Below, piece after piece: positions 5,050-23,818 of a stretch of DNA of 64,000 bases (the first letter of the stretch is position 1; every line of letters starts with the position of its first letter). A program made the position numbers and the translations under genes. The notes under the pieces were generated by a model, which was given only the letters and a program-made list of their open reading frames with translations, searched no databases and was not told the origin of the DNA. This DNA is from Candidatus Ghiorseimicrobium undicola (GTDB lineage: Bacteria > Omnitrophota > Gorgyraeia > Ghiorseimicrobiales > Ghiorseimicrobiaceae), in the NCBI GenBank assembly GCA_002796125.1, contig PCWA01000075.1, positions 10,317-74,316 of the forward strand. Reading direction: 5' to 3'.

Positions 5050-5054
5050 AGAGA

Positions 5055-6980: not shown

Positions 6981-8585
6981 TTATTTTAGCGGCCGTTCTA
7001 CCCTCTCGCTTAACTGGGTCAATTCTTCGCTGGATGTCTGTCCCGGCTCGACAATTTTCGCGGTAATAAAAACGAGCAAATCTATTTTCTCCGTATCTGT
7101 AGTTTTTCTCTGGAATAACCAACCCAGTAAGGGGATCTTCCCCAAGAATGGAACCCCTTGCCTGCCTTCCTTTTTAACGTCCTTAAGCAAGCCTCCGATC
7201 ACGATGGTTTCGCCGTTCTTCATTAATATCTGCGTATCGGCCTCACGGGTAATTATAATTGGATATTCCGCCAAAGTTGTCCCGTTAGAATCTTGCGCCT
7301 TTACCGTATCCGTAAAAGATGTAACCGCAGGATGTACTATCAAATTTATATAATCACCGCCGCTTATTTGAGGAACAACGTTTAATTGTATTCCTATGTC
7401 GCGATAGGTATCCAATGAATAATTATATATCACCCCGCCGGAGGTAGTAGTGGATTGCTCCGCCTTAAGAAAGGGGAATTTAGTACCTACTAATATAGCC
7501 GCTTCCTGATTGTTAAGGGTCAGTATACGCGGCGCCGAGAGAGTATTGGCGTGGATATTCTCTTCCAAGGCGTGAAGCACCACTTCAAATTGGGTGCCGG
7601 TTAATTTCTTGTAGAGGATTTCAAACCCTGTATTAAACGGCTCTGAGCTTGAAATCGTGCTCTGCTTAGGCCCGAATACGGAAGATGCCGTTTCTGAAGA
7701 CAATAACTGTCCGCCGAATTGAGAATTAGGCTCGCGCGTTCCGTCTGCACCCACGCGCTTACTGGCATCAACCAAACTAATAGTTGATGATTCTGCGCCT
7801 GAAGATCCTGTGCCCCAATCAAAACCTATATCGGTAAGCTCATCCCTGTTTACTTCCACAATTCTCGCTTCAATTAATATCTGTTCAGGGAGAATATCGA
7901 TATCGTTAACCACTTTTTCCATTTCATCCAAGACCGGTCGCACATCGGTAACAAGAAGAACCTTGGAGCGTGAAATCTGTCCTCCTCTTATCCTCTCGCG
8001 CTTAGACTGGTCGTCAACCGTGCCAAATTCCCAACCGGCCTGGCCGGTAGTTTCCAATACGGTAATCTTTCCTCTCTCGGATTTGATAGAATTTAAAGTA
8101 TTTGCTACATCTTTAGCATCTAAATATTTTAGCCTAAAAACCCTGGTTTCCGTGGTTTGTGTTTGCGAAAATTCCGCCTCAAGCTTCTGTTGTTCCGCCA
8201 GCTTTTCAAGAGGCCCGATAATAATAATACTGCCTTTTTTTACGTAACCAAACCCGTAGGTTTTAACTACCGCATCAAGGGCCTCATGCCAAGGCACGTT
8301 TTCAAGCCTTATCGTAACCAATCCCGTTACTTCCGGCCCCGGCACTATATTGACCCCGCTTTTTAAAGAGATAACCCGCAAGACGTTACGTATATCGGCA
8401 TCTTTAAAATCAAGCGTTATATTAGGACTCTCTTCTGCCGCGGCATTTTGCATTTCGGCAGGATTATTTTCAATGTTAGGATTCAAAGCGTTATCCGCAT
8501 AAACGCCTACGTTCCCAGATAAAAATAAAAAGCATAAAAACATAAAACAAAAAAACATTCCCCTGGTCCCTTTTATCTTCTTCAT
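6981..8585 (-). CDS. pilQ: type IV pilus secretin
   Basis: Signal peptide, secretin N domains, and the C-terminal secretin motif GGLLKDVKKEGRQGVPFLGKIPLLGWLFQRKTTDTEKIDLLVFITAKIV. Confidence 0.85.
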   Translation of the reverse strand: MKKIKGTRGMFFCFMFLCFLFLSGNVGVYADNALNPNIENNPAEMQNAAAEESPNITLDFKDADIRNVLRVISLKSGVNIVPGPEVTGLVTIRLENVPWHEALDAVVKTYGFGYVKKGSIIIIGPLEKLAEQQKLEAEFSQTQTTETRVFRLKYLDAKDVANTLNSIKSERGKITVLETTGQAGWEFGTVDDQSKRERIRGGQISRSKVLLVTDVRPVLDEMEKVVNDIDILPEQILIEARIVEVNRDELTDIGFDWGTGSSGAESSTISLVDASKRVGADGTREPNSQFGGQLLSSETASSVFGPKQSTISSSEPFNTGFEILYKKLTGTQFEVVLHALEENIHANTLSAPRILTLNNQEAAILVGTKFPFLKAEQSTTTSGGVIYNYSLDTYRDIGIQLNVVPQISGGDYINLIVHPAVTSFTDTVKAQDSNGTTLAEYPIIITREADTQILMKNGETIVIGGLLKDVKKEGRQGVPFLGKIPLLGWLFQRKTTDTEKIDLLVFITAKIVEPGQTSSEELTQLSERVERPLK

Positions 8586-8992
8586 CGGCCCTCCTCCCGG
8601 AGCAAGACTTCACGCCTTTCTCCATTTTGCAAAACCACGACTTTATCTTTTTCTATATCCAAAATTTCCATGCCCGCAACAATTTCTCCCTTTTTTACAA
8701 TTTCCCCATTTATAATGGCCAGCGATTCTCCGCTATAATCATAGATAATGCCCTCTAAATAAAAACCGGATTTATCCGCTTCATCTTCGAAGCTGCGTAT
8801 TAAACCCTCCGGAGTAACCAAGGGTATGAAAGGATCCCTCTTGCCCTGCGCCTTGTAAAGAAATACCGCCTCTTCATTATCCGTATCTGCGGCAAAAAGA
8901 CAAATATTAAACATTGGGAAAAAAGCGATAATAAGCATAGCATAGAAAAAATAGCCGGAAATTATACATTTAAAACCGCTGGATTTATTCAT
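8582..8992 (-). CDS. pilP: pilus assembly lipoprotein PilP-like
   Basis: Small protein with N-terminal TM/signal and the KRDPFIPL motif typical of PilP. Positioned between pilO and pilQ. Confidence 0.6.
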   Translation of the reverse strand: MNKSSGFKCIISGYFFYAMLIIAFFPMFNICLFAADTDNEEAVFLYKAQGKRDPFIPLVTPEGLIRSFEDEADKSGFYLEGIIYDYSGESLAIINGEIVKKGEIVAGMEILDIEKDKVVVLQNGERREVLLREEGR

Positions 8993-9563
8993 CGTTATTT
9001 TTAACCAATGCCTCTATGGTCATCTTAACAGGATATATAAAAGGGGCTTCCCGCACTGAAGAGATATCAAAAGCCAACACCTTTAAATACCTGATCGATG
9101 TTTCCAGCTTATTGATAAATTCTCCCAACCGGTGATAAGCGCATTTTAAATCTAAATTTATAAGTAGGCGCGAAAACATCCCGGCTTTTCCGCCTTCAAC
9201 AGCCCTATTCATCTGCTGCCCCGAAGGCCTTACCTGCATAATCACTATATTTGAATCTTTGGCGATTCTTGAAACCTCGCTTAACAATAAAGGTATTTCT
9301 TCTTCCGTAACAAACATTTTTTCAAAGTCCGGCAATTCTGAATTTAACTTGGCATAACGTTCTGTTAAGCTGTCTTTTGAAGATATCGCCGCCCTGGCAA
9401 CTACGATATCTTTTTTTAATTTTCCGGCCTGGGGCATGGATTTAGCAAGAAAACGCACCTGCCCGCCTAAAACAAAAACAAAATCAAAAATAATAATAGC
9501 CGCGGCTATGGAGATAGGTTTTATTAAATGTTTTTTCTCTTTTAAAAACTGCTCAACCCACAT
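8985..9563 (-). CDS. pilO: pilus assembly protein PilO-like
   Basis: Bitopic membrane protein with a coiled-coil segment. Operon position between pilN and pilP. Confidence 0.55.
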   Translation of the reverse strand: MWVEQFLKEKKHLIKPISIAAAIIIFDFVFVLGGQVRFLAKSMPQAGKLKKDIVVARAAISSKDSLTERYAKLNSELPDFEKMFVTEEEIPLLLSEVSRIAKDSNIVIMQVRPSGQQMNRAVEGGKAGMFSRLLINLDLKCAYHRLGEFINKLETSIRYLKVLAFDISSVREAPFIYPVKMTIEALVKNNDE

Positions 9564-9566
9564 GGT

Positions 9567-10130
9567 TTACTCCAAAACTCCTCTTATAGAAAAATCTATC
9601 ACCTCTACCCCGGAAACATTACTTCTGACAATAGAAACTATTTCCATGCTTTTAAACCCGGAATAGAAAAACTTATCTTTCTTGAGCGCCTGTAAAAACT
9701 TATGAAGAGAATCAACTTCTTCGCCTTTTAGGGATATCACCGACCCTGTAATATCAAGGATGCCGTCTGATGCGCGCATACGGTTAAACCAGATACCTTT
9801 CGGCAAAAGCAGGCTTAAGCTATTTAACCTTCTGGCCCAACGCGACTTCTCGACAGCCAGTTTGTTCGTAATCCCCAGCCTTGCCTCCAAACCTTCAACG
9901 TCTTTTTTAAGTTTTATGACATCCGCATTTTTGCTCGATATATGAGACCATTCCCTGCCTAAGCTGGATACGCGGTACTTATAGAATAATACGCTAAAAA
10001 GCAACAAAACATGCAGCCCAACCAAAACGATAAGGGCCAGTTTTGCAAAATAAACAACAGCATCAAAATCGATACCCTTCTTAGCTTTTGACAGGCGTAG
10101 ATTTTCCGGTAATAAATTTATTTCTATCAT
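9567..10130 (-). CDS. pilN: pilus assembly protein PilN
   Basis: MIEINLLPENLRL... is the PilN signature INLLP followed by a TM helix. The ATG overlaps the pilM stop (ATGA). The track ORF extends 12 codons upstream. Confidence 0.7.
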   Translation of the reverse strand: MIEINLLPENLRLSKAKKGIDFDAVVYFAKLALIVLVGLHVLLLFSVLFYKYRVSSLGREWSHISSKNADVIKLKKDVEGLEARLGITNKLAVEKSRWARRLNSLSLLLPKGIWFNRMRASDGILDITGSVISLKGEEVDSLHKFLQALKKDKFFYSGFKSMEIVSIVRSNVSGVEVIDFSIRGVLE

Positions 10131-11164
10131 TTTCGTAAAGCGAGACCTGCGGCAACGGCAAAACATGGCCCTGTCTTCGCGCAGTTTTCTTTATCCGCAT
10201 TATCGGAAATTTTTAAATGATCAAAGGGATTCCATATTTTAAAATCAATCCCCATCGCCCTGCTCATAAATTTATCTATGCCGCCAAGCAAGCTGCCGCC
10301 TCCGGTTAGGTATGCGCAGTTTACCGCCCTGCCGGTATTGCTTTCGTAATAATCAAAAGAAAGGCGCAGCTCACCGACCAACTCTGCCAACAAAGATTCC
10401 ACGGGCTCTCTTGCCTCAGCGATTTCATCGTAAGAAACCTTTATCTTCTCTGCCTCATCATAGCCGATCCCCAGCTTTACTGAAATTCTATTGGTAATAT
10501 CAGCCGAACCGAACAAGATGTCGCGGTTAAACCTTAAGCTGCCGGAATCAAGCAGGGACAAGTTACTGATACGCGCTCCGATGTTCAAAACGGCAGACAT
10601 TTCTTTATTTTGCTGTGTATCTAAAAAATTGAATATATTCGTAAGCGCGACCGAATCAATATCCAAAACATTAACTTCAAGGCCAAGGCCGGAGATTAAA
10701 TCAAGCCTGCGCTGCACAAAATCTTTTTTAACCGCGGCAATTAAAACAAGCATTTTATTTCCTTCAAGATTATGTTTCAATATGGCAGAATCCAGGACAA
10801 CTTCGTTGACAGGAAAGGGTATATGCTTTGCGGCTTCATATTTCATAGAATTTTTAAATTCGCTTTCATTCATGTCGGGAAGCATGATGCACCTTGTAAG
10901 CACTTCCTTGCCTGACAATCCCACATTTACGGACCTGCTTTCAATGCCGGCCGCAGCGAGCAATTCACCAAGCGCGGCTTTTATATCCTGATTTTTTATC
11001 TGGCGGGTTCCTAAAGCAGACACTACCGCGTCGCTATTCAACATGTCTATTTTGACTAATTTTATATTACAGCTTCCAATATCCAGTCCGAAAACATAAG
11101 ATTTTTTATCCCTCCTTGGTATAAATTGCAATATTTTCTCGCCAATATCGTTAATTTTAAGCAT
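10127..11164 (-). CDS. pilM: type IV pilus assembly ATPase-like protein PilM
   Basis: Actin-like/FtsA fold N-terminus SYVFGLDIGSCNIKLVKI. 345 aa. Directly upstream of pilN. Confidence 0.85.
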   Translation of the reverse strand: MLKINDIGEKILQFIPRRDKKSYVFGLDIGSCNIKLVKIDMLNSDAVVSALGTRQIKNQDIKAALGELLAAAGIESRSVNVGLSGKEVLTRCIMLPDMNESEFKNSMKYEAAKHIPFPVNEVVLDSAILKHNLEGNKMLVLIAAVKKDFVQRRLDLISGLGLEVNVLDIDSVALTNIFNFLDTQQNKEMSAVLNIGARISNLSLLDSGSLRFNRDILFGSADITNRISVKLGIGYDEAEKIKVSYDEIAEAREPVESLLAELVGELRLSFDYYESNTGRAVNCAYLTGGGSLLGGIDKFMSRAMGIDFKIWNPFDHLKISDNADKENCAKTGPCFAVAAGLALRK

Positions 11165-11181
11165 GATAACACAGTAAAAAA

Positions 11182-11541
11182 TTAATAAAAAACTACGTTG
11201 CTTTTTTCCAATTCCCTCATCTCTTCTTCCGTGGGTTTTATGCCTTTGGCTTCCGCCTCTCTTATCTCTTCTTCGCTATTAAGTTGAAACGGTTCAATTT
11301 CTATTCCCGGCAGCTCTATTATTTTTTTCTTATCTTTTTCTTCTCTGCCGGAATTTTCCACGCGCCTGCCTACTTGAAGTGCCGGCAGGCCTGATTTTAA
11401 AGATGATTCCTTATCTCTTTCTCCGGCAATAAATCTTTTATCGCTTACGCCGGCCTTTTCTTTTATTATTGCAATATTCAAAACCGCTATAATTAAAATG
11501 AAAATCCCCAGAGAAATCAAAGCAGGCATCCATCTTTTCAT
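11182..11541 (-). CDS. hypothetical membrane-anchored Lys/Glu-rich protein
   Basis: N-terminal TM helix and a charged C-terminal tail. No recognisable family. Embedded in the pilus operon. Confidence 0.35.
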   Translation of the reverse strand: MKRWMPALISLGIFILIIAVLNIAIIKEKAGVSDKRFIAGERDKESSLKSGLPALQVGRRVENSGREEKDKKKIIELPGIEIEPFQLNSEEEIREAEAKGIKPTEEEMRELEKSNVVFY

Positions 11542-11545
11542 TTCT

Positions 11546-12802
11546 CTACTCCTCTCTCCATGAAGTTATGATATAATCGCCTGTCGTAGGATTATACGGC
11601 GGAGGATTACTGGTAAAGCGGCTATCGTAGCTATAATCTTTGTTATAACCGCTTAATTTTTCTCCTGTTGAACCATCAAAAGTACCAACAGGCCCTCGCT
11701 GATTCTGGATTATCCCGCCATAGACCGTGAGGGTGCCTTTGGGCGGACCCTGCCAATATTTAAAAACCGTGAATGAACTACCCAATGCCATAATGCTGGC
11801 ATCTATTTCTAAATCGTAAGGGGCTGACTGCGGAATAATCACATTTTTTTCAGCTACAATTCCCAATTTATCCGCGGAATCAGGATTAACCCTGGGATCA
11901 TCGCTATAGACCACATTATCGCTGACAATAATGTCGCGCTCCGAACCCACGCTTACACTGCCCTTGACAGTACCGGAAATATCGAGATCGCCATTATCAA
12001 CAAATATAGCGCCATTGGCCGGGATACTAGTGTTAAAATTATTCCAGCCTTTATTAGCGTTGGTCACATTCATAGTACCATCGGCATTGAAGGCTATTGC
12101 CGAGTTTCCGGTAAGAAAAATTCCTCCCCCGCTGGCGGCAGTCCTTAAATTAAGGGCGCTTGCCGGCATAGCTACGGGATCGGCACCCAAGTCTATCCCT
12201 TGTTGAAAATCAGGCATATCATAAGGCGGATTGGAGCTGCTGCTTAAATTTTTAGGATTACCGTTATTATAATAACGTATATAATTATCCCCGCTCTTAA
12301 CCTCGCCCTCAAAAACCGGCCCTCCTTTAATCTTAAAACGCCCATTGGTCTGAACAGGGCCTTTTAACAAATCTCCGTCTACAAACCAGACATTAATACC
12401 CATAAAACGCTCCTGGTCCGTAAAATAAGCGTAGCGGGCGTAGTGGTCATCGCTAAATGTTGCCTTTATTGTCTTGTTTTCATTGCCGACGACGGCTGTT
12501 GACTCTACATTATAGACTAAGGAAACAGGGCTGGAAACCGTAAAGGAAAAACTGCCATTGCCTAAGTTTACAGTTCCGGAATTATAAGGGAGCGCTGCCG
12601 GATAACTCGTCCTTAGCCAGACTAAGGCGCTGTCTATGCCTGACTCAGCCAGATAGAATGCCTGCATGGCATTATTACGCCTGGAGGCACTACCCATCTC
12701 ACTGACGCTTCTGGCGGCAAAACTTATTATCAGGATAAGTAAAACCGAAATTATAAGGTATGTGGCGATAATAATAAAGGCCGCATCTTTCCTTATCTTC
12801 AC
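11546..12802 (-). CDS. PilX N-terminal domain-containing pilus-associated protein (418 aa, Gly/Asn-rich)
   Basis: TM helix followed by ...RRNNAMQAFYLAESGIDSALVWLR, resembling the PilX_N motif (A.Q.AF.AAEAG.). The rest is G/N/S-rich, beta-rich-looking. Confidence 0.5.
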   Translation of the reverse strand: MKIRKDAAFIIIATYLIISVLLILIISFAARSVSEMGSASRRNNAMQAFYLAESGIDSALVWLRTSYPAALPYNSGTVNLGNGSFSFTVSSPVSLVYNVESTAVVGNENKTIKATFSDDHYARYAYFTDQERFMGINVWFVDGDLLKGPVQTNGRFKIKGGPVFEGEVKSGDNYIRYYNNGNPKNLSSSSNPPYDMPDFQQGIDLGADPVAMPASALNLRTAASGGGIFLTGNSAIAFNADGTMNVTNANKGWNNFNTSIPANGAIFVDNGDLDISGTVKGSVSVGSERDIIVSDNVVYSDDPRVNPDSADKLGIVAEKNVIIPQSAPYDLEIDASIMALGSSFTVFKYWQGPPKGTLTVYGGIIQNQRGPVGTFDGSTGEKLSGYNKDYSYDSRFTSNPPPYNPTTGDYIITSWREE

Positions 12803-13821
12803 AACTGCCTCCAGGAAATTATCTGCACATCAGCATGTAATCCCATCTTGTTTATCGCCTGCATATAAAAAGCATTGTACTGAATCGTTGTATTACCATT
12901 AAGGCGCGATTCATCCCCTGACCATACGCCGCCGTCAACGTTTAGCCCTCCGCCTCCGCCGTTTACCCTAAAATCGCCTAAAGTATAAATGCATCCTTCT
13001 ACTTGTCCGTTTCCGTTTATGGTCGTCTCCGAAGAACTGTTTGGATCAGTTATAACATCCCCTACTACTACAAAAAAGCCGCCGATAGTACCGATATTCC
13101 CGTTTAACTGCAGATCATCTTCTACATAAACTACATTAGGGACACCCGTTGCGGGATCTGCGGGGTCCGTAGGAACAGAATACCAGAATGAAGCGGGAAA
13201 ACTATCGGTGTTATTCTGAACGTCTGCCAGGCGTGCTGTATCATAAACATTGCCTTGCCCGATACTTATGGCACGCAGCTCCGCATAATTAAGACGCGCC
13301 AACGGAGAAATTCCCGGATCATTGGTTACACTGCCTGTAATATTGTCTGGGTTATCAATGGAGCCGGCATAGATTACATCTCCGTCCACCAGATAACTGC
13401 TGCCGTTTAAATCAATATCCCCCGCGGAATAAATCGCATTATCATAAAACCCCCCGGGTATAGCTTTTCTTATATACGCCTCGATACTTACTTTCTGCTG
13501 TGCAGCCGAAACAGATGGTATATAGCCAAAAGTATCTACTTTGCGCTCATCAAGACCAACAGCGTTAACCACTACAGAATATTCTCCGCTGCCTAAAGCA
13601 ACCGCGGTAACGCCCGTCCAGTCAAAATTATTTTTTAATTCCACAAGCGCTCGATCCAAACCCGCTTCCGCCAGATTAAAGGCCTGATAAAATCCTTTTT
13701 GCCTTTCGGTCAAGTCTTTCTCCTGTATGCCCCTGCTAATGAAAACCCCTATCAGGATTATCAAGACAACCACAACGAAAGCGATTAAAACCAAAATAAC
13801 GCCTTGTTTTTTATTATTCAT
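12799..13821 (-). CDS. second PilX N-terminal domain-containing protein (340 aa)
   Basis: ...ERQKGFYQAFNLAEAGLDRALVEL is the same PilX_N-like motif. Paralog of the upstream gene. Confidence 0.5.
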   Translation of the reverse strand: MNNKKQGVILVLIAFVVVVLIILIGVFISRGIQEKDLTERQKGFYQAFNLAEAGLDRALVELKNNFDWTGVTAVALGSGEYSVVVNAVGLDERKVDTFGYIPSVSAAQQKVSIEAYIRKAIPGGFYDNAIYSAGDIDLNGSSYLVDGDVIYAGSIDNPDNITGSVTNDPGISPLARLNYAELRAISIGQGNVYDTARLADVQNNTDSFPASFWYSVPTDPADPATGVPNVVYVEDDLQLNGNIGTIGGFFVVVGDVITDPNSSSETTINGNGQVEGCIYTLGDFRVNGGGGGLNVDGGVWSGDESRLNGNTTIQYNAFYMQAINKMGLHADVQIISWRQL

Positions 13822-14387
13822 TAGTTTCTCAGCCTCACTTGGGTGTTTAGAGTAATGCTTACTTTTTCATCCCCTGGGGAAGTAAACCCTTTAAATGCGT
13901 ATTTTTCTGCCGTGATGTAAATTTCTATAATATCGGTACCTGCCGGCCAGTTGAAATTAAGAGTTGCTACTTTATTCGCCAAAACAGATTGCTCTCCGCT
14001 AAGGCTTAGGGTCCTTACAATCTGATCTCCGGACAATGAATAAGTTATGGTGCCGATTCTTTTTCCCCCGGGATCATCCGACCATTCAATTCCGCCCCCT
14101 TCAATAACCGTGCCATTATCATTCGCATCCCAGGGTATTTCGAATGTGATAGAACTGGCATTAACGCCTTCTGAGATGCCGCTGACTTTATTAGAACGCG
14201 TCTGCCTTAATTCTTTGACAATGTAATCCAGCGCCCGGCGCGCCTCCTGCTCAACCTCAATCTGAATATTTCCTACGTCAAAGGCTTTTTGGCCTCCCGT
14301 CAACAGAGCGAATACAACAGTCAAAATAATAGAAAAAATAGCAACCGCTACTACCAGCTCTATAATAGAAAAAGCCCTTTTCTTCAT
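13821..14387 (-). CDS. prepilin-like minor pilin/pseudopilin
   Basis: MKKRAFSIIELVVAVAIFSIIL is an N-terminal class III signal-like hydrophobic segment with conserved Glu. Ala rather than Gly precedes Phe. Confidence 0.5.
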   Translation of the reverse strand: MKKRAFSIIELVVAVAIFSIILTVVFALLTGGQKAFDVGNIQIEVEQEARRALDYIVKELRQTRSNKVSGISEGVNASSITFEIPWDANDNGTVIEGGGIEWSDDPGGKRIGTITYSLSGDQIVRTLSLSGEQSVLANKVATLNFNWPAGTDIIEIYITAEKYAFKGFTSPGDEKVSITLNTQVRLRN

Positions 14388-14818
14388 CGGTTGGCGATAT
14401 AAGTAACCAGTCTGGCAGGAGAAGAGCCCAGTGGATTTAACGCGCTATCACCGCCTATAATCCTGCCGTTTTTCTGCCTCCAACACGCGGTTACGGTAAC
14501 CAACAAGAGATCCGGATTGGTATTATCCACCTCTACCAAGCCATTACTATCGCCGATAGCTATACCATCTACCGCAAAATTAGGATTATTCGTATAATAA
14601 GTGTAGATATCTGAAAAATTGTGATCGCGGATTTCTTCTAGCTTTTTCTGCGCGCCATTTAAAGCATAGGTAGTGTTGCGTGCCGTCTCTACCAATTCAA
14701 AACAAGTAAGGTAAGTGGCCAGCAAGCCAGTCAAAGCAATACCGATAATCAGCATCGCTATAACTATTTCTATAAGCGTAAAGCCCGCTTTGGGCAACTT
14801 TCTCTTAAACGGATACAT
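14384..14818 (-). CDS. type IV minor pilin (PilV-like), prepilin N-methylation motif
   Basis: KAGFTLIEIVIAMLIIGI is the canonical G-FTLIE prepilin cleavage/methylation motif. Confidence 0.7.
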   Translation of the reverse strand: MYPFKRKLPKAGFTLIEIVIAMLIIGIALTGLLATYLTCFELVETARNTTYALNGAQKKLEEIRDHNFSDIYTYYTNNPNFAVDGIAIGDSNGLVEVDNTNPDLLLVTVTACWRQKNGRIIGGDSALNPLGSSPARLVTYIANR

Positions 14819-15649: not shown

Positions 15650-16846
15650 CTAATGGCCGATAAGCTCTAAGACGCTGAATATCGGCAGAAATAAGGAAAT
15701 AACGATACCGCCGATTATTGTTCCCAAAAGCACGATAACTACCGGTTCAATTAAACTCGTCAACGCGGAGACGGCGGCATCTACCTGCTCTTCGTAAAAA
15801 TCAGCAATCTTTGAAAGCATTTTTTCCAGGTGGCCTGTCTGCTCTCCGACGGAAATCATCCTTACCACCATAGGAGGGAAAATATTGCCCCTTGCTAAAG
15901 GTTCAGCTATCGGTTCTCCCTCTTTTATGGAACTGGTCGCCTGAATTATTGCCTGCTCTATTATTTTATTTCCTGAAGTCTTGCCTACAATTTCTAAAGA
16001 ATCTATTATCGGCACCCCGCTTTTAACTAAAGTAGATAATGTCCTGGAGAACTTTGCCACGGCAACTTTTCTAAATAATTGGCCGAATATAGGCACTTTC
16101 AATAACATCTTATCAAAATTATACCTTCCTTTTTCCGTAGATACATAGCGCTGTATTATTATGCCTAAAATAACAAGAATTATGACGATATATAGAAAAG
16201 ACGACCTTATGCCATCGCTTATGCCAATCAAAATTCTGGTAGGGAGCGGAAGCCTGCCCCCCAAGGTTACGAAGATAGCCTTAAACGTAGGAACTACTTT
16301 AATAAGCAAAAAAGTGGTAATAAGTATTGCCATGCTTATTACTACTACGGGATAAATCAGGCTTGAGCGCACTTTCCGCTTCAAAACACTGACTTTTTCC
16401 AGATAAGTAGCGAGCCTGTCCAAAACTTCATCCAACTGGCCTGAAACCTCCCCCGCCCTGACCATGCTTATAAAAAGGCCGGAAAAAACCTTTTGATGTT
16501 TTTTAAGCGCCTCAGAAAAACTCAAGCCCTCTTCTATATCCTGGCGTGTTTTAGCCGTGACCTCCGAAAGGTACTTATCTTCTGTCTGTTCAGCTAAAAT
16601 ACTCAATGTTTGAGCAAGCGGGATACCGCTGTCTATCATCGTAGCGAGCTGCCGGCAAAAAATTACTAATTCATCTAATTTAACGGAACGCGCCTGTAAC
16701 TTAGGCGCTTTTGTCTGATGTATTGAAACAACCAGCAGTTCCTGCCGGTGCAACCTATCAATCAAAGAAACTTCGTCAGGCATCTCAGCCAGCCCGGAAA
16801 CGTTCTTGCCGGTTTTATCTTTTGCCACATACTTATAATTCGGCAT
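15650..16846 (-). CDS. pilC: type IV pilus inner-membrane platform protein (GspF/PilC family)
   Basis: 398 aa with two T2SS-F repeats and three TM segments. Neighbour of the PilB-type ATPases. Confidence 0.85.
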   Translation of the reverse strand: MPNYKYVAKDKTGKNVSGLAEMPDEVSLIDRLHRQELLVVSIHQTKAPKLQARSVKLDELVIFCRQLATMIDSGIPLAQTLSILAEQTEDKYLSEVTAKTRQDIEEGLSFSEALKKHQKVFSGLFISMVRAGEVSGQLDEVLDRLATYLEKVSVLKRKVRSSLIYPVVVISMAILITTFLLIKVVPTFKAIFVTLGGRLPLPTRILIGISDGIRSSFLYIVIILVILGIIIQRYVSTEKGRYNFDKMLLKVPIFGQLFRKVAVAKFSRTLSTLVKSGVPIIDSLEIVGKTSGNKIIEQAIIQATSSIKEGEPIAEPLARGNIFPPMVVRMISVGEQTGHLEKMLSKIADFYEEQVDAAVSALTSLIEPVVIVLLGTIIGGIVISLFLPIFSVLELIGH

Positions 16847-16880
16847 AAGCCCTCGCTTTATTTATGGTATTGAATATATT

Positions 16881-17933
16881 TTAAACAAGATTATCTATTA
16901 TTTTTAAAAACACCTCAACAACCTTTGGGTCAAACTGACTGCCGCTATTTCTTTTTATTTCCTCAATGGCGCTTTCCTTAGAAAGTTTAATATTGCGGTA
17001 TGAGCGCTCGGAAGTCATGGCATCATAAGCATCAGCCAGAGAAATTATCCTTGCCCCCAATAGGATATCCCGGCCTTTTTTCCCTGCCGGATAACCGCTG
17101 CCGTCAAAATTCTCATGGTGTTCCTTGACTAATTCGGCGATATTCTTTAAATCTAAATCTCTTAAAATACGCGCGCCCATTTCAGGGTGCTGTTTCATTA
17201 AAATCCATTCATCGGGGCTCAATTTACCGTCCTTGGTTAAAATCGCGTCCCTTATGCCGATTTTCCCTATATCATGCAATCCGCAGGCATCGCGTATATC
17301 TTTTACCTCCTGAAAACTCAAGCTCATATTTTCCGCAATTGCCACCGCATATTTTGTAACATTCTCCGAATGACTATAAGTATATTTATCGCGCATATCA
17401 ATAAGCTGGGCAAGCGCCTTTATTGAACGCACATAAGATTCCTGTAAAGTAGAATATAAAGATATGGAATTTTTAACCCCCTCATCTACCTTTTTACTTA
17501 AAAGAGAAATTTGCTTCTCCATATTAATTATTTTCTCTTCATGTATCATAATATTATTCTTAACTCTTTTGAATAATATTGCCTGCTTTACGACCAAAAA
17601 AAGGTTTTTGGGCTCAAATGATTCCGGCAAAAAATCAAATATACCCAGCTGCAGCATATTATTTATCGCATAGTAAGAATAATTATCGGTTACTGCTATG
17701 ATGAGCGAATCGAACCTTTCTTTTTTTAAATCTTGCAGTAATTTATTTTGTTCGATGGAAACATCCTTTGAACTAACTATTATAACGTCAAAATTATCCA
17801 TCCTGGCCAGGCTGATAGCTTTGGATATTTCCGGCTCAATTGTTACGGAAAAATCCTCTCTGGTTAAGTCTTTTTTCGCATGATAACATAAAGCATGTTC
17901 TTCGCTAATAACTAGCACTTTTCCTTCGGCCAT
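16881..17933 (-). CDS. receiver-like domain + HD-GYP cyclic-di-GMP phosphodiesterase
   Basis: HDIGKIGI and HHENFDGSGYP motifs define HD-GYP. The N-terminal 120 aa is a CheY-like fold with a possibly non-canonical acceptor region. Confidence 0.8.
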   Translation of the reverse strand: MAEGKVLVISEEHALCYHAKKDLTREDFSVTIEPEISKAISLARMDNFDVIIVSSKDVSIEQNKLLQDLKKERFDSLIIAVTDNYSYYAINNMLQLGIFDFLPESFEPKNLFLVVKQAILFKRVKNNIMIHEEKIINMEKQISLLSKKVDEGVKNSISLYSTLQESYVRSIKALAQLIDMRDKYTYSHSENVTKYAVAIAENMSLSFQEVKDIRDACGLHDIGKIGIRDAILTKDGKLSPDEWILMKQHPEMGARILRDLDLKNIAELVKEHHENFDGSGYPAGKKGRDILLGARIISLADAYDAMTSERSYRNIKLSKESAIEEIKRNSGSQFDPKVVEVFLKIIDNLV

Positions 17934-18018
17934 TTGCTCTCCATTGGTTTCTTAAAATCAAAGCTTGGCGCTTTTGACATAAAACTTTCTCAACGCACAG
18001 CTGGAAAAAATATTAAAA

Positions 18019-19731
18019 TTATTCGCCTTCGCTGGTAACGCGCAAAACCTCTTCTATGGACGTAATGCCTTTAGAAAGCTTTAAATGGGCGTCTTGCCTT
18101 AAAGTGATCATGCCGCACTTAGAAACCGCGTATTCTTTTATTTTATCCATAGAATGCCTATTTATGATCATTGTCCTTATTTGGTCATCTATTTCGAATA
18201 TTTCCAATATCCCTATTCTACCAAAATACCCGGTATTATTGCAATAGTCGCATCCTTTGCCATGATAAAAAACCGCATCTTTATCTATAGCCATTCCCAG
18301 CTTAGCCAAAACCTCCCTGGATATATTTTGTACTTCTTTGCAACGGGGGCAAAGAGTACGTACGAGCCTTTGCGCGCAAGCCATAATTACGCTTGAAGCC
18401 ACCAGAAACGGCTCAACATTCATATCAATAAGGCGGCTGATTATGCCTATGGCATCATTGGTATGCAAAGTAGACAAAACTAATTGCCCGGTCAAAGCGG
18501 CCTTGACAGCTATATCTGCCGTCTCGGAATCACGTATCTCGCCAATCATTATTACATCCGGGCTCTGGCGCAGCAGAGAACGTAAGCCGGAAGCAAAAGT
18601 AAGGCCTGCCTCGCTATTAACCTGAATCTGCGTAATGCCCTCTACCTGATACTCTACGGGATCTTCGATAGTAATAATATTCCTCTCCGGAGTGTTTAAC
18701 TGGCTTAAAACAGAATAGAGCGTGGTTGATTTACCGGAGCCGGTAGGCCCGGTCACTAAAATCATTCCATAAGGCTTGCTTACCGCCTTTTTAAATAAAG
18801 CTAAAGGCCTCTGGCTAAACCCCAGGCTGTCCAGCCCTATAGAAAGATTGGATTTATCTAATATCCTTAAGACAAATTTTTGTCCAAAAATAGTAGGCAG
18901 GGCGGAAACACGAAAATCCACCTCCTTGCCTTCCATGCGGATCTTAAACCTACCGTCCTGAGGAACGCGTGATTCTGTAATATTCAGCCCGGAAATTATC
19001 TTTATGCGGGCAAGAACCGCGTTTTGATTGGCCTTTGGTAAAGTAAAAGCATCCTGCAATTCTCCGTCAATACGATAGCGTACACGCAACGCCCTTTCTT
19101 CCGGCTCGATATGTATATCGGAAGAACGGCGTTTTAAAGCCTGGGCTATCATTAAATCTACAATTTTGACAATCGGCGCTTTTTTACTCTCTGCCAAAGT
19201 ATCGGCTAAATCAATGGATATGCCAAGATCCGCCTCTTTATGCACTATATCCTGAGATTCAGAAACATTCTTTAAAATATCGGTTATGCTTTCTTTGTCC
19301 GATTTATAATAATTGGCTATTGCTTTGGAAATTTCAGAATCCAAACACATAACTGGCTGTATTTCGTAATTTGTCAGCATCTTTAAATCATCCAGAGCAA
19401 AAATATTCAGCGGATCGCTCATAGCGACTGTCAGGACATTGCCGATTTTTGATATCGCGATTAAGTGATACTGGCGGGCGATACGCTCCGGGATTAAATC
19501 TATCGTATCCTTATTTATTTTATAACGCGATAAATCTAACGGTGGGATATAAAGCTCTTTTGAAAGCAGAGAAAAAAGTTCTTCTTCTTTTACAAATCCG
19601 CCGTCTATCAAAAGCTGCTTGATGTTTACGCCTTTTTCTTCCTGCAGTTTCAATATTTTTTTCATCTGGGACTGATTAATGAGCTTATTATCAATAAGTA
19701 TTTTAATCAGTTTTTCCTGTAATGTGGCCAT
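18019..19731 (-). CDS. pilB: type IV pilus assembly ATPase PilB (GspE family), copy 1
   Basis: N-terminal GspE-N domain, Walker A GPTGSGKSTTLYS, Walker B, His box, and C-terminal CxxC...CxxC zinc motif. Confidence 0.85.
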   Translation of the reverse strand: MATLQEKLIKILIDNKLINQSQMKKILKLQEEKGVNIKQLLIDGGFVKEEELFSLLSKELYIPPLDLSRYKINKDTIDLIPERIARQYHLIAISKIGNVLTVAMSDPLNIFALDDLKMLTNYEIQPVMCLDSEISKAIANYYKSDKESITDILKNVSESQDIVHKEADLGISIDLADTLAESKKAPIVKIVDLMIAQALKRRSSDIHIEPEERALRVRYRIDGELQDAFTLPKANQNAVLARIKIISGLNITESRVPQDGRFKIRMEGKEVDFRVSALPTIFGQKFVLRILDKSNLSIGLDSLGFSQRPLALFKKAVSKPYGMILVTGPTGSGKSTTLYSVLSQLNTPERNIITIEDPVEYQVEGITQIQVNSEAGLTFASGLRSLLRQSPDVIMIGEIRDSETADIAVKAALTGQLVLSTLHTNDAIGIISRLIDMNVEPFLVASSVIMACAQRLVRTLCPRCKEVQNISREVLAKLGMAIDKDAVFYHGKGCDYCNNTGYFGRIGILEIFEIDDQIRTMIINRHSMDKIKEYAVSKCGMITLRQDAHLKLSKGITSIEEVLRVTSEGE

Positions 19732-19792
19732 AAAATAGTTATGCGTTGTGAGTTATGGGTATTGAGTTTAAAAATCCATAAGTTTTGACTTT

Positions 19793-21514
19793 TTATTTCT
19801 CATCTGCTGCGGTAACCTTCAACACTTCTTCTATAGTGGTTATACCTGCATATGCTTTTTCCATACCGGACTCTCTTAGCGTTTGCATTCCGGAAGCACG
19901 CGCCGATTCTTTTATTTTATGCTCCTCTGCGGCGTTAATAATCAAATCTTTAACCGCTGTATCAAGGGTAAAAATCTCGCCTATGCTGATCCTGCCTTTA
20001 TAGCCGGAATTTAAACAAGCAGCACAGCCCTTGCCTCTATAAAATACCGCCGGTTTGCCTTTGGGGTGTTTTATATTCAGCTTATCTAATGATTCTTCGT
20101 TTAATGTATACGCTTCTTTGCACTTAGGACAAATCACGCGTACCAGCCTTTGGGCAATTGCGCATACCACCGAAGATACAATTAAAAACGGTTCAACCCC
20201 CATATTGACAAGCCGCACTATAGAACCGGCGGCTGTTGTGGTGTGAAGCGTTGAAAGGACTAAATGCCCCGTCAAGGCTGATTTGATAGCTATGTCGGCG
20301 GTATCAAAATCCCTTATCTCTCCCACCATGATTATATCCGGATCCTGACGCAAGATAGAACGAAGGCTGGAAGCAAAAGTCAAGCCGACTTCTTCTCTTA
20401 TGTTAACCTGGTTTATGCCCGCCAACTGGTACTCTACCGGATCTTCAACGGTAATAATATTCAGCTGGGGTTTATTAATAAGATTTAATAAAGAGTATAG
20501 CGTGGTTGTCTTACCGCTGCCTGTTGGCCCGGTCACCAAAATCATACCGTGCGGCCTAAGGGCATTTCGTTTGATTAATTCTAAATCCCGGTTTGAAAAA
20601 CCCAACTGGTCTATATCCAGCGTCGTCGAGCTCCTGTCTAATATGCGCAGGGCGGCTTTTTCGCCAAAGCTCGACGGCAGTATCGATACGCGGAAATCGA
20701 CTTCCCTTCCCTCAATTCTAATCTTGAATCTGCCGTCCTGCGGTATTCTATGTTCCGATATATTAAGGTTGGATATGACCTTTATGCGTGAAATAATGGA
20801 AGCATGTAAAGATTTTGGGGGCGATTCCTTTTCCCGCAATGAGCCGTCTACCCTGAAACGTATACGCATAGCACGGTCAAACGGTTCAATTAATATATCC
20901 GACGCCTTTAACTTTATCGCGTCTTCCAATATCATATTAGTAATTTTAATAACCGGGGCTTCCTGGCTTAACTGGATAAGAGTGCCGGCATCAAGGCTAT
21001 CTTCTTTATCATCTTTTTTTATTAATTCAATCTGAAAATCCGATATATCCTTAAGTACCGTATTAAATGTACTTTGATCGCTGGAGCCGTAATACCTCTC
21101 CAGGGAAGCGGCTATGTCCTCAGATGAAGCTATTAACGGTATAATTTTATAACCTGTGAGGGCGCGAATATCATCTATGACAAATATATCCAGCGGGTCA
21201 GCCATGACTACCGTCAAAAAATCTTTTCTCTTGGATAAAGGGATAATTTGATAATGCCGGGCGGTTTGGGCGGGAATAGTTTCCAGAATCTCCGGTTCGA
21301 TCTCCAGCTGGGAAAGCTCGATACAGGGGAATCCTAACCCCTGGCTCAGAACAGATACCAAATCTTTTTCATTAATAAATTTCAGCCCTATTAATATATC
21401 TCTTAATTTCCCGCCCTTTTCTTTTTGAACCTGCAAAGCCGTTTTTAATTGTTCTTCATTTATCAGGTTATTTTTTAACAATATTTCTGAAAGGCGGTCC
21501 TTTAAAGAAGGCAT
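19793..21514 (-). CDS. PilB/GspE/MshE-like secretion ATPase, copy 2 (paralog)
   Basis: Same architecture, Walker A GPTGSGKTTTLYS and a tetracysteine motif. The N-terminus RLSEILLKNNLINEEQLKTALQVQ resembles the MshEN c-di-GMP-binding motif. Confidence 0.8.
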   Translation of the reverse strand: MPSLKDRLSEILLKNNLINEEQLKTALQVQKEKGGKLRDILIGLKFINEKDLVSVLSQGLGFPCIELSQLEIEPEILETIPAQTARHYQIIPLSKRKDFLTVVMADPLDIFVIDDIRALTGYKIIPLIASSEDIAASLERYYGSSDQSTFNTVLKDISDFQIELIKKDDKEDSLDAGTLIQLSQEAPVIKITNMILEDAIKLKASDILIEPFDRAMRIRFRVDGSLREKESPPKSLHASIISRIKVISNLNISEHRIPQDGRFKIRIEGREVDFRVSILPSSFGEKAALRILDRSSTTLDIDQLGFSNRDLELIKRNALRPHGMILVTGPTGSGKTTTLYSLLNLINKPQLNIITVEDPVEYQLAGINQVNIREEVGLTFASSLRSILRQDPDIIMVGEIRDFDTADIAIKSALTGHLVLSTLHTTTAAGSIVRLVNMGVEPFLIVSSVVCAIAQRLVRVICPKCKEAYTLNEESLDKLNIKHPKGKPAVFYRGKGCAACLNSGYKGRISIGEIFTLDTAVKDLIINAAEEHKIKESARASGMQTLRESGMEKAYAGITTIEEVLKVTAADEK

Positions 21515-21622
21515 GTGCGCTCACTTTGCTCAGGAAAATCCGGGCACCGGCAGGCAGCAGGCAGAAAAAATCTCAAATCCTGATTACCGGGCCCTGCCCA
21601 ATAAAGTACAAATGGCTTTTGG

Positions 21623-22084
21623 CTATTTTTTATAAAATCTTTCGATAGCATTTTTTATATCGGTAGTGGTGCTTATAAAAATCTGCACGGTAGAATTAGC
21701 TAACAGCTCAATGTCATCTACAGCCTGCAGGTTAAGGGGATTAGACATGGCGACTGTTAAATTACTCCCTATTTTATCGATCGCGATCAGGCAATATTGT
21801 TTAGCCACATTATAAGGAACAATCCGCACAATATCGGTATCTATCTCATAATTTGCCAAGGGAAGATACGGAAAACCATACTGCGCGGTAAGCGCCTGAG
21901 CAATAGCCTCTTCCGTAACAAAACCCAGGCTTACAAGAATTTCGCCTACCAGCCCGCCTTTCTCCTTTTGAAGATTAAGGGCTTCAATAAGCTGGCGCTG
22001 CGAAATCATATTTCGCTCAACTAATAACTCGCCTAATTGTTTAGGATTAATCCGCCTTAAAGGTAACGGCATATTTTTAATCAA
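21623..22084 (-). CDS. standalone GspE N-terminal (T2SSE_N / MshEN-like) domain protein
   Basis: 153 aa. KQLGELLVERNMISQRQLIEALNLQ...GFVTEEAIAQALTAQYGFPYLPL...VAKQYCLIAIDKIGSNLTVAMSNPLNLQAVDDIE aligns along its length with the N-domains of the two PilB paralogs. No ATPase domain. Confidence 0.6.
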   Translation of the reverse strand: MIKNMPLPLRRINPKQLGELLVERNMISQRQLIEALNLQKEKGGLVGEILVSLGFVTEEAIAQALTAQYGFPYLPLANYEIDTDIVRIVPYNVAKQYCLIAIDKIGSNLTVAMSNPLNLQAVDDIELLANSTVQIFISTTTDIKNAIERFYKK

Positions 22085-23457
22085 GAAGCTAATAAGTCCT
22101 TCACTTTATTAATTAAATCTGTTGCGTTAATTCCGTCTATAGGATTTTCGCTGACAGCACGGTTCAACGTAATTCTTTTTTTGACGTCCGTTTCTTCGCC
22201 ATATATATACTCTATCTTTTTTACCATATCTTGGGCGATATTTTCAGCCTGGCGCTTGTTTTTTTCAGGGAGAACTATAGCAAATTCACTGTCTGAGAAC
22301 CTGGCAGCTTTATCTATTTCTCCGATATTGCTTTTTATAATCATGGCTATTTTCTTTAATACGGATTCCGCATGCGCAGAACCGAAATTCGCGCAAAACT
22401 CTTTATAACGATTAATACTTAAAACAATAAAAGCGCACGGCCTTTGGCTTATTATGGCCCTCTTTATTTCTTCTTCCAGCCTTTCCTTTATAAAAGAAGA
22501 ATTGTAAAGTCCGGTTAAAGCATCCTTAACTTCAAGGCGATTGATATGATTCAAAAGTATATCATTCTCTATGGCGATAGTTATTTGTTTTACAAAGATA
22601 TCGATAAGCTTAAAATTATCATCCCGGTATTCCAAATTTCTGTCATTTCCTATGCCGGCCAAGCCAAATACCTTGCCATGAACATATATAGGCGCGATAA
22701 CAGCGTCTGTCAGAGCGAATATGCGCCTAAACTCATCAATCATTTTATTGGGCGGCACTTTCTTGTTCAACGCAAATGTTTTTCTATCTTTTAAAACTTT
22801 GGCGAATATATTATCCGATGCCGCATTAAACTCCCTATTCAACAAATAGTCGGAATTAATGCCGTAGATAGATTTTACCAATATTTTTTCTTCCTGTTTC
22901 AGCAGTAAAAATGCCGAATCTGAATCGCCTATCTGCAGCATTTTTTCTACGCTTAGATCTAATGTCTCATTAATATCGGCGCCTTCGGAAATAAACGAAC
23001 TTACCTGTAAAAGGCTGGAGAGAATAACCACCTTACGGTTAATTTCCAGATTTATTTCTTTAGTTTCCTGGCCGTATTTTTCAAGCTCCCTCATATTATT
23101 TTTTATGCGGCAAGTCAACTGCTGCAAGGCATCTTCCAAATCACCGATTTCATCATCGCGTTTTGCCCGGGATACATAATCAACTTCACCTCTGGCTATG
23201 TCCTTCGCTTTGGAAGAAATATTAATTATGGGGTCTATAACCTGCTTAATTATAAAAAAACCGCTTACAGCCACAAAAATACTTATACAAACCAATAAAT
23301 AAATATTTGATTTAATGCCTATGGTGGGAAGCATATAAGTCGAAATTACATATATGGATATCAATAACGGCAACACAGACATAAGATAAAAACTTATGCG
23401 CAATTTATACCGTAAGCCGCGTGACGACAAGGATAATTGTTTTAAAATATTTTTCAT
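22081..23457 (-). CDS. membrane sensor with HAMP-like, GAF-like and a degenerate GGDEF domain (SDSEF in place of GGDEF)
   Basis: Two N-terminal TM helices. DALTGLYNSSFIKERLEEE...ARFSDSEFAIVLPE matches the GGDEF domain layout but with the active-site GG(D/E)EF replaced. Confidence 0.65.
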   Translation of the reverse strand: MKNILKQLSLSSRGLRYKLRISFYLMSVLPLLISIYVISTYMLPTIGIKSNIYLLVCISIFVAVSGFFIIKQVIDPIINISSKAKDIARGEVDYVSRAKRDDEIGDLEDALQQLTCRIKNNMRELEKYGQETKEINLEINRKVVILSSLLQVSSFISEGADINETLDLSVEKMLQIGDSDSAFLLLKQEEKILVKSIYGINSDYLLNREFNAASDNIFAKVLKDRKTFALNKKVPPNKMIDEFRRIFALTDAVIAPIYVHGKVFGLAGIGNDRNLEYRDDNFKLIDIFVKQITIAIENDILLNHINRLEVKDALTGLYNSSFIKERLEEEIKRAIISQRPCAFIVLSINRYKEFCANFGSAHAESVLKKIAMIIKSNIGEIDKAARFSDSEFAIVLPEKNKRQAENIAQDMVKKIEYIYGEETDVKKRITLNRAVSENPIDGINATDLINKVKDLLAS

Positions 23458-23520
23458 AGTTCACTCCTTTTATGATTCCACCGCAGCGGAAATCCTAAAA
23501 TGTTTCTATTTATATAATAT

Positions 23521-23549
23521 ATAGTATTCTATATTTTAGATACTGTCAA
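23521..23549 (-). promoter_or_regulatory. Putative sigma70-type promoter for the GGDEF-like/MshEN-like/pilB2/pilB1/HD-GYP/pilC gene run
   Basis: On the minus strand: TTGACA, 17 nt, TACTAT. An AAAGGAGTG RBS lies 5 nt before the ATG of the GGDEF-like gene. Coordinates approximate. Confidence 0.4.
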
Positions 23550-23566
23550 TATATCTAACCCAAGCG

Positions 23567-23800
23567 GTAGTATACGGAAAATTATGTAAATTCGCCTGCT
23601 GGCTTGGGCTGATTTTGAGCAGGGCGTAACGCAGGCCGAGCGGGCAAGGTTCGCCTTTGATTGCATATTGGCGAGAGCGAGGCCGAGTAGCCGAGCGCGA
23701 TTTTCCACGCTGGGGAAAATCGCGCGTCCCCGCGAAAAATAAGGTCAAGCCAGCGGCCATATTAATCCGCTATAATTTACACAATTTATTCTACACAACC
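23567..23800 (+). mobile_element. MITE-like repeat family A, copy 2 (full length, about 234 bp)
   Basis: Matches 4828-5049 (reverse complement) and 41176-41322. Terminal inverted repeats and internal hairpins. The 74-aa track ORF inside it is considered spurious. Confidence 0.7.
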
Positions 23801-23818
23801 AACCCAAGCTATTCCTGC

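Follow-up and report, generated by a model that had tools for sequence, protein, structure and literature searches.

The pilus extension ATPase MshE of Vibrio cholerae carries a fused MshEN domain, and the cyclic di-GMP (c-di-GMP) site of this domain consists of a pair of 24-residue motifs (RLGxxLLxxGLIxxxxLxxxLxxQ) with 5 residues between them (Wang et al. 2016, PMC5013675). Guanine receives hydrogen bonds from the backbone amides of Gly3 and of the residue that follows, leucines stack on the bases, and Gln24 of the motif contacts ribose and phosphate (PMC5013675). Among V. cholerae MshEN mutants, binding was not detectable for G11L, 72-fold lower for G40I and 12-fold lower for Q61A (PMC5013675, Suppl. 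Table 1), and XpsE, a non-binder, has G11V, G40L and Q61V (PMC5013675). The consensus at position 1 has been widened to R/K/L (Neissner et al., PMC11731258), and a hydrophobic first residue, L196 in PilF's GSPII-B domain, goes with nanomolar affinity (PMC11731258). Here we describe a pilus locus in a 64-kb stretch of DNA (64,000 nucleotides, hereafter the window) from the Omnitrophota bacterium Candidatus Ghiorseimicrobium undicola, contig PCWA01000075.1, in which a full-length MshEN domain is encoded as a free-standing protein. Like V. cholerae MshE (5HTL), this protein has the two-subdomain fold, the 24+5+24 motif with Gly3, Leu triangles and Gln24 in both halves, and a tie to a type IV pilus extension ATPase. 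Unlike MshE, in which the domain is fused to the ATPase, it is a separate polypeptide upstream of two ATPases with degenerate N-domains, and position 1 of its motifs is Gln/Leu rather than Arg/Arg. We rate the chances as about even that this standalone MshEN protein is the c-di-GMP receptor of a type IV-A pilus (T4aP) motor with two PilB paralogs, acting in trans as a detachable N1 domain that licenses extension.

Thermus thermophilus PilF likewise has several MshEN-type domains per motor, only some of them competent for c-di-GMP (PMC11731258, PMC12002112), and motif II of its high-affinity domain GSPII-B begins with Leu, as does ours (L45). In PilF, however, all domains are in cis on one ATPase, whereas here they are divided over three polypeptides, one domain-only and two full ATPases. 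MshEN_N modules that lack T2SSE are known from ATPase-less proteins, among them PA3740 of P. aeruginosa (Wang et al. 2016, Suppl. Table 4). PA3740 is a c-di-GMP binder implicated in surface motility (Wang et al. 2016, PMC5013675), but its N1 is highly divergent and no pil operon is described for it in that source, whereas the Omnitrophota protein is a canonical full MshEN with a fixed place directly upstream of pilB-pilB-pilC; the architecture table of Wang et al. (PMC5013675) has no plain full-length stand-alone MshEN. The FimX-PilZ-PilB system of Xanthomonas and Pseudomonas (PMC8389850, 7LKM/7LKO) has a receptor working in trans on a PilB whose N-domain is a non-binder; it shares with our locus a degenerate GGDEF domain, and its PilB-N:PilZ complex is among the fold matches of the standalone MshEN protein. 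The presumed receptor here is instead an MshEN domain, and the degenerate GGDEF domain lies behind a membrane HAMP-GAF, not REC-PAS; a Pfam search of the six module proteins and their neighbours gave neither an EAL nor a PilZ domain, and the likeness to FimX-PilZ is one of functional analogy only.

In X. campestris, the RpfG (REC-HD-GYP)::GGDEF::PilZ::PilT/PilU complex is an example of REC-HD-GYP and GGDEF proteins regulating pilus motors, partly without catalysis (PMC3749722). Our locus differs in that the receiver is without acceptor Asp, the GGDEF domain appears dead and the genes lie inside the pil operon. Two PilB-class ATPases, PilB and TfpB, serve one T4aP in Acinetobacter baylyi (PMC11656802); in our case the two are adjacent paralogs, neither of which reaches the TfpB model cutoff. 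All of the parts are from known families, and no description of the module as such was found in the searchable open-access literature. To this extent the statement in a first-pass annotation of the window, made from the sequence alone, that the architecture is not a described system holds, but free-standing or ATPase-less proteins of this type, PA3740 included, had already been listed by Wang et al. In Omnitrophota, a phylum of uncultured nanobacteria, T4aP are near-universal and are presumed to serve in attachment to hosts or prey (PMC10066038); the same genomics study mentions neither c-di-GMP nor GGDEF. The coupling of N1 to PilB has been called poorly understood, the tethered N1 being flexible (PMC11656802).

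Six open reading frames (ORFs) lie between positions 15650 and 23457, all on the minus strand, where the first-pass annotation had placed them. From the upstream end they encode a membrane-anchored pseudo-diguanylate cyclase of 458 aa with a transmembrane hairpin, HAMP, GAF and a degenerate GGDEF domain reading SDSEF (22081..23457); the free-standing full-length MshEN protein (21623..22084); two PilB-type extension ATPases with MshEN and T2SSE domains, PilBa (19793..21514, 573 aa, previously 'paralog 2') and PilBb (18019..19731, 570 aa, previously 'paralog 1'); a predicted pseudo-receiver and HD-GYP phosphodiesterase of 350 aa (16881..17933; HD_5/HD); and the platform protein PilC of 398 aa (15650..16846; T2SSF). 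Pfam and NCBIfam hidden Markov models (HMMs) agreed with the domains originally assigned to each of the six proteins. The gaps between the genes are -4, 108, 61, 85 and 34 nt in that order, in keeping with the tight same-strand run that had been reported.

The standalone protein had been described as an N-domain only, and the HMMs indeed gave MshEN and no ATPase domain. PF05157 scored 65.9 bits, with no other domain found by Pfam, and NF053729 (NCBIfam 'cyclic di-GMP-binding domain, MshE-related') scored 64.3 bits against a cutoff of 38. Model positions 1-53 of NF053729 align to residues 16-68, that is, to the tandem 24-residue motifs and their 5-residue spacer, and these 53 residues (21881..22039, minus strand; QLGELLVERNMISQRQLIEALNLQ-KEKGG-LVGEILVSLGFVTEEAIAQALTAQ) form the predicted c-di-GMP site. 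The AlphaFold2 (AF2) model has a pLDDT of 88, with helices at residues 17-23, 29-42, 46-52 and 58-69 followed by an alpha/beta part. Comparison of a predicted structure with the complex of MshEN and c-di-GMP had been proposed as a check, and the best PDB match of the AF2 model in Foldseek was 5HTL, MshE with c-di-GMP (E 3e-12, template modelling (TM) score 0.73-0.79, 32% identity). The next matches were PilF GSPII domains, the X. citri PilB-N:PilZ complex and XpsE-N. By model and fold match, both subdomains are present, a four-helix bundle (MshEN_N) and the T2SSE_N1 alpha/beta subdomain. The best PDB sequence match to the family profile was PilF of Thermus.

The annotated start of this protein is a TTG at 22084, which gives 153 aa and overlaps the stop codon of the degenerate GGDEF gene by 4 nt. 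Because MALPLRRI is the N-terminus of the orthologs, and the matching start codon here is the ATG at 22072, the TTG start is probably wrong and the ATG right, resulting in a protein of 149 aa and an 8-nt gap. In its 153-aa form the protein has a 100% identical counterpart, annotated as hypothetical, in the metagenome-assembled genome (MAG) 'Candidatus Omnitrophica bacterium CG11_big_fil_rev_8_21'. There are 3785 homologs at E < 1e-5, and the best 120 of these are almost all free-standing proteins of 145-165 aa with 54-76% identity, a few being of 213-221 aa. Relatives occur at at least 534 places in species-representative genomes, the best 80 all being Omnitrophota-type loci, and more distant standalone relatives (38-50% identity) are from Omnitrophota wherever the source is named. 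Orthologs have 65% mean identity to the window protein, which makes it the best-conserved protein of the module; the corresponding values are 58-60% for the ATPases, 39-59% for their MshEN_N parts, and 42-43% for the degenerate GGDEF and HD-GYP proteins. Current database labels of the standalone proteins are 'hypothetical protein' or, wrongly, 'PilB'.

Residues at the ligand-contact positions were counted by column over the orthologs of each N-domain (87 sequences for the standalone protein, 74 for PilBa and 66 for PilBb). The contact set of the standalone protein is L17, G18, L32, L36 and Q39 in motif I and V46, G47, I61, L65 and Q68 in motif II. Gly3 and Gln24 of both motifs (G18, G47, Q39 and Q68) were found in 100% of the orthologs, and the Leu/Ile contact positions were 79-100% identical and hydrophobic in every ortholog. 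Motif II starts with Leu (L45) in 98% of sequences, which fits the extended consensus and matches L196 of PilF GSPII-B. The first-pass annotation had read motif I only and considered its Gly positions to be substituted; with the second 24-residue motif included, the critical Gly3 proves to be kept in both, and only the turn Gly of motif I is changed.

A different picture was obtained for the two ATPases. In the PilBa N-domain, Gly3 is S9, Gly3 of the second motif (Gly3') is R38 and the second Gln (Gln24') is G59, and across the PilBa family these positions are T/S/I, S/K/R and G, respectively, with both Gly3 replaced in most orthologs. The PilBb N-domain has I9, K38 and E59 at these positions (I/T/S, R/G/K and E/Q in its family), and several of its Leu positions are eroded. 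Gln24' is replaced in all sampled PilBa sequences and in about two-thirds of PilBb. PilBb had already been singled out as more degenerate, and it is the most degenerate of the three, its N-domain lying below the NF053729 cutoff (28.5 vs 38). Only the standalone protein therefore keeps Gly3 and Gln24 of both motifs over the 66-87 orthologs, which does not support the original proposal that c-di-GMP input is distributed over three N-domain copies. Since the PilB N-domains replace residues whose published mutations abolish or weaken binding, it is more probable that the detached domain takes most of the input than that three copies share it.

In order to compare gene order, 85 related loci were annotated by BLAST with the window proteins, ORF starts being called mechanically; 59 of them were complete across the region. 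Some of these loci are labelled 'uncultured Planctomycetia', a label which is the depositors' own. Each of the complete loci (59/59), which come from different Omnitrophota genomes, has the order degenerate GGDEF-(PilT)-MshEN-only-PilBa-PilBb-(HD-GYP)-PilC, and the median gaps within the module are 3-20 nt. Conservation in related genomes, another check that had been suggested, was thus confirmed for the core order, and because this order is the same in every complete locus, the arrangement is a phylum-wide selected feature and not chance. An HD-GYP gene and no PilT, as in the window, was found in 29/59 loci; 26/59 have PilT between the degenerate GGDEF and MshEN genes and no HD-GYP, and 4/59 have neither. 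PilT and HD-GYP are mutually exclusive within the module. The two locus types also differ in protein length (145 vs 149 aa for MshEN and ~543 vs 570 aa for PilBb), and one MAG, C4_maxbin.042, has both types (L049 and L066), representing either two pilus systems or a mixed bin.

Several of the related loci depart from the common form at the positions of interest. In L091 and L092, which represent one Omnitrophota lineage in two separate assemblies, the PilBa ortholog is only 395 aa long, aligns to residues 184-572 of PilBa at 57% identity and has no N-domain. Within the regions concerned (L091:2622-4257, L092:2528-4163), the gene for this N-less PilBa starts 23 nt before the end of the standalone MshEN gene, in another frame, and a full-length PilBb follows; as judged from these sequences, the standalone MshEN protein would be the only N1-type domain available to the N-less PilBa. 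The slot between PilBb and PilC in L001 (13960-18549) holds a 1375-aa GGDEF-STAND NTPase-HEAT protein in which AGDEF, DxD, K, N and D are intact and which is probably active as a cyclase, and this gene is followed by a second standalone MshEN gene. Enzymes predicted to make or break c-di-GMP thus appear to recur in the PilBb-PilC slot of the motor operon. In some species the standalone protein takes a 215-aa form with an extra complete MshEN_N motif pair, and L088 has two standalone MshEN genes in tandem.

The HD-GYP protein matched HD_5 with 118 bits and HD with 77 bits. Its HD at residues 220-221 and HHENFDGSGYP at 272-282 are conserved at at least 90% in most positions and at least 50% in all (32 orthologs). 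The receiver scored 24.8 bits with Response_reg, under the cutoff of 30.2; where the phospho-accepting residue is expected, the window protein has Ser (FDVIIVSS) and its family K/S. Since the phospho-acceptor Asp is absent, we regard this protein as a putative pseudo-receiver phosphodiesterase. The connection of c-di-GMP with the pilus motor that had been proposed for this locus is consistent with the conserved HD-GYP motifs, with the AGDEF cyclase in the same slot of one relative, and with the matches of the standalone protein to NF053729 and to the MshE-c-di-GMP fold.

The first protein of the module was found by Pfam to contain HAMP, GAF_2 and GGDEF (81 bits) domains, behind two N-terminal hydrophobic segments that form the hairpin. 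Its GGDEF domain had been called degenerate, and this was borne out: SDSEF stands at residues 388-392, and where PleD has D327, N335 and D344 the window protein has S, C and E. The full catalytic residue set was found in 0/81 orthologs, the GGDEF string in 1 and SGD(E/K/S)F in 8, five of these being SGDEF. On these residues the GGDEF domain of the window protein is dead as a cyclase. The I-site RxxD, expected five residues upstream of the A site, is GEID in the window protein, and the first position is T/S in 68/80 orthologs and R in 4/80. As the RxxD arginine is absent, a role as a PelD/PopA-type I-site receptor was rejected. The best PDB sequence match was FimX, a regulator of pili, through its degenerate GGDEF domain (3HVA, E 6e-12), with PleD having a nearly equal score.

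Both ATPases gave high T2SSE scores (467 bits for PilBa and 445 for PilBb). Their scores with TIGR02538 (type IV-A PilB) were 653.5 and 635.2, under the cutoff of 675.65, and scores with the GspE model were lower still (614.7 and 596.7) and also under that model's cutoff. The context of PilM, PilN, PilO, PilQ and pilins favours the type IV-A pilus assignment of both. PilBa and PilBb, paralogs encoded side by side, share 57% identity over their ATPase part. Walker A (GPTGSGK(T/S)TT), the Asp box (EDPVEY), Walker B (GEIRD) and the His box (STLHT) are at least 90% conserved over 66-74 orthologs, and the four Cys of the tetracysteine Zn motif are present in both, so that both are probably active ATPases. 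Identity with TfpB was rejected for either protein (456-474 bits, far under the model cutoff of 850), and apparent PilBa-PilBb fusions of 1170 aa in L018 and L048, which would have spoken for a heteromeric motor, were traced to masked N runs in the genome collection and discarded as artefacts. PilC scored 223 bits with T2SSF, in two repeats, and 415-425 bits with the NCBIfam PilC models, under their cutoff of 700.

The mechanism that we propose, with about even confidence, is as follows. PilBa and PilBb, both predicted to be catalytically competent, would work with PilC, and the separate 149-153-aa MshEN protein would be the c-di-GMP sensor of both ATPases. Once bound to the nucleotide, it would act in trans as a detachable N1 domain, its target being the ATPases or their docking site on the PilM/PilC platform, and in this bound form it would license pilus extension. 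The adjacent HD-GYP enzyme would lower the local c-di-GMP, a cyclase setting the level in some lineages, and the membrane HAMP-GAF-GGDEF protein may be a non-catalytic sensor or scaffold that feeds a signal into the complex. We infer c-di-GMP binding by the standalone protein, the trans interaction, its positive sign and the co-transcription of the genes. If the detached MshEN protein is the receptor of the motor, it would offer a simple soluble protein of 150 residues for studying how nucleotide binding by MshEN/N1 is coupled to PilB, would mean that sensor and motor can be separate polypeptides, and would give a phylum-specific marker module for annotation.

A further step is more tentative, and we hold it to be possible but less probable than the receptor role itself: that the N1 sensor domain was split off as the exchangeable and sole nucleotide receptor of a two-ATPase motor and shuttles between the pseudo-cyclase scaffold and the motor. 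Were this so, extension in these ultra-small, host-dependent bacteria would be licensed by recruiting a soluble sensor rather than through allostery inside PilB. Regulation of this kind would have no described precedent among T4P or type II secretion system (T2SS) ATPases.

A number of observations weigh against the proposal that the detached domain is the receptor of the motor. Position 1 of motif I in the standalone protein is Gln (Q16; 84% of the family), after an invariant Lys (K15), and fits neither the strict nor the extended consensus, and at its turn, position 10, this motif has N25 in the present genome vs Gly in 71% of the family. The PilBa N-domain lies above the NF053729 cutoff (51.9 vs 38), its motif I leucine contacts and Gln24 are retained at 89-97%, and the domain may still bind c-di-GMP to some extent. 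Pairwise identities are 36-40% among the three N-domains and 40, 41 and 34% to Geobacter PilB-N, which means that the standalone domain is, at the level of sequence, special at its ligand-contact positions only; these near-equal identities also rule out the idea that it is ancestral-like and closer overall to canonical PilB N-domains. A c-di-GMP enzyme is not obligatory in the cluster, since 26/59 loci have PilT instead of HD-GYP and 4/59 have neither, and no active diguanylate cyclase was found in the 64-kb window. The degenerate GGDEF domain is also dispensable in places: L089 retains the TM-HAMP-GAF part without GGDEF, and L086 has a stand-alone receiver in its place. This loss and replacement fit a role as an input or scaffold rather than an essential catalyst, and the role that we assign to the protein is a guess.

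It is possible, though in our view unlikely, that the standalone protein is a decoy or brake, which mimics PilB N1, competes for the docking site on PilM/PilN/PilC and so blocks extension, c-di-GMP binding or HD-GYP activity relieving or imposing the block. Such a function is suggested by the complete T2SSE_N1 subdomain, since in T2SS ATPases a subdomain of this kind binds GspL, and the fold search returned EpsE-N:EpsL and GspE:GspL complexes for the N1 part at ranks 22-24. PilB N1 domains are thought to contact the stator, and the three N-domains of this locus are about equally alike. The PilBa proteins that lack an N1 of their own in L091 and L092, however, fit an N1 supplied in trans better than a competitor.

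A less probable arrangement, and one that we consider doubtful, is that c-di-GMP is read with graded affinity by the standalone protein and by both PilB N-domains, much as in the first-pass annotation. All three domains match PF05157, and two of them, the standalone and PilBa, pass NF053729; PilBa has the motif I leucines and Gln24 given above; and Thermus PilF has three tandem GSPII domains of differing affinity. One of those three PilF domains, however, is non-binding through small motif deviations, and the deviations in the PilB N-domains include loss of Gly3 from both motifs in most orthologs, and the second Gln is missing from every PilBa sampled and from some two-thirds of the PilBb sequences. 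Mutations equivalent to these abolish binding or strongly cut it and likewise mark the non-binder XpsE, and PilBb falls under the NF053729 cutoff.

Also improbable, and slightly more so, is a structural subunit that works independently of nucleotide, in which motif conservation reflects packing of the helix bundle and the links to HD-GYP and the degenerate GGDEF protein are unrelated or transcriptional only. Many motif positions do belong to the hydrophobic core of the four-helix bundle, the cluster is without a c-di-GMP enzyme in half of the loci, and PilZ and GGDEF proteins of Xanthomonas can regulate pili without nucleotide binding or catalysis. The invariant residues of the standalone protein nevertheless include polar and backbone ligand contacts (Gly3 and Gln24, twice each), and the PilB N-domains have lost such contacts yet keep the fold family, so packing alone does not require them. 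Duplication of the MshEN_N module in some standalone proteins and the recurrence of c-di-GMP turnover enzymes in the same slot also argue against a purely structural subunit. Finally, the reading of the 153-aa ORF as a gene-decay remnant, the 5' leftover of a third pilB, or as an annotation or assembly artefact, for which one could cite its homology to PilB N-termini and the case of a Paenibacillus reference strain in which a truncated pilB fragment is transcribed, is effectively refuted by the conservation data, namely the 3785 homologs with the best 120 almost all full-length (145-165 aa) and from many independent assemblies, the relatives at at least 534 places in species-representative genomes, the highest conservation of any module protein, and an AF2 model that is confident and complete.

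To judge from what follows them on the same strand, the six genes form that end of a complete T4aP locus (~16.5 kb) which encodes motor and control functions. Pfam identified two N-methyl pilins (14384-14818 and 13821-14387), PilM (10127-11164), PilN (9567-10166), PilO (8985-9563) and the secretin PilQ (6981-8585), all on the minus strand, and an ORF at 8582-8992 (minus strand) occupies the PilP position in the locus. This remaining part of the locus (6981..14818, minus strand) also holds three proteins that are unassigned or DUF4900 by Pfam. The interval between pilC and the pilin genes is occupied by a YjeF_N (NAD(P)HX epimerase-type) gene at 14923-15612; a YjeF_N gene is also present there in at least one relative (L007), and others have a nitroreductase and a TPR protein. 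The locus is flanked by a Radical_SAM_N2/Radical_SAM gene (23819-25567) and a DUF2344 gene (6582-6944), the wider neighbours being mreBCD-pbp2-rodA-radical SAM on one side and DUF2344-RNase G on the other. The upstream side of this placement, beside the cell-shape genes, is kept across the Omnitrophota loci examined. No PilT gene and no further GGDEF or HD-GYP gene was found in the 64-kb window, the remaining genes being housekeeping ones.

Upstream of the degenerate GGDEF gene, the promoter and ribosome-binding site that had been noted are both present as sequences: TTGACA-N17-TACTAT lies in the intergenic region at 23521..23549 (minus strand) with 10/12 matches to a sigma-70-like consensus, and the ribosome-binding site AAAGGAGTG, read off the sequence, is located at 23462..23470 (minus strand), 4 nt before the ATG at 23457. 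Because promoter-like matches in the region were no commoner than in shuffled sequence (32 found vs 27.5 expected), the former is plausible as a promoter but is a candidate only. A search of the window with Rfam at gathering thresholds gave one tRNA only, and a c-di-GMP riboswitch or other structured RNA was therefore rejected.

The gap between the radical SAM and degenerate GGDEF genes is 361 nt in the window vs a median of 86 nt in related loci, because a repeat element of 261 nt is inserted there. This GC-rich repeat of ~260 nt (59% GC vs 41% for the window) resembles a miniature inverted-repeat transposable element (MITE), with terminal inverted repeats and the flanking direct repeat AACCCAAGC, and occurs in three copies in the window (23558-23818, 4833-5050 and 41176-41322). 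The first copy fills the intergenic region just upstream of the candidate promoter, the second, inverted and with 82% identity, lies between the genes for L21 and RNase G, and the third is internally deleted and adjoins a tRNA. It has no Rfam family match and gave weak matches in two further Omnitrophota loci (L033 and L050). Elsewhere in the window, a lipopolysaccharide (LPS)-core gene cluster encodes two unusual fusion proteins (58186-60267 and 60344-62296), one of 693 aa joining a family-4 glycosyltransferase to a family-9 heptosyltransferase and the other of 650 aa joining a lipid A acyltransferase to an ELM1-like domain.

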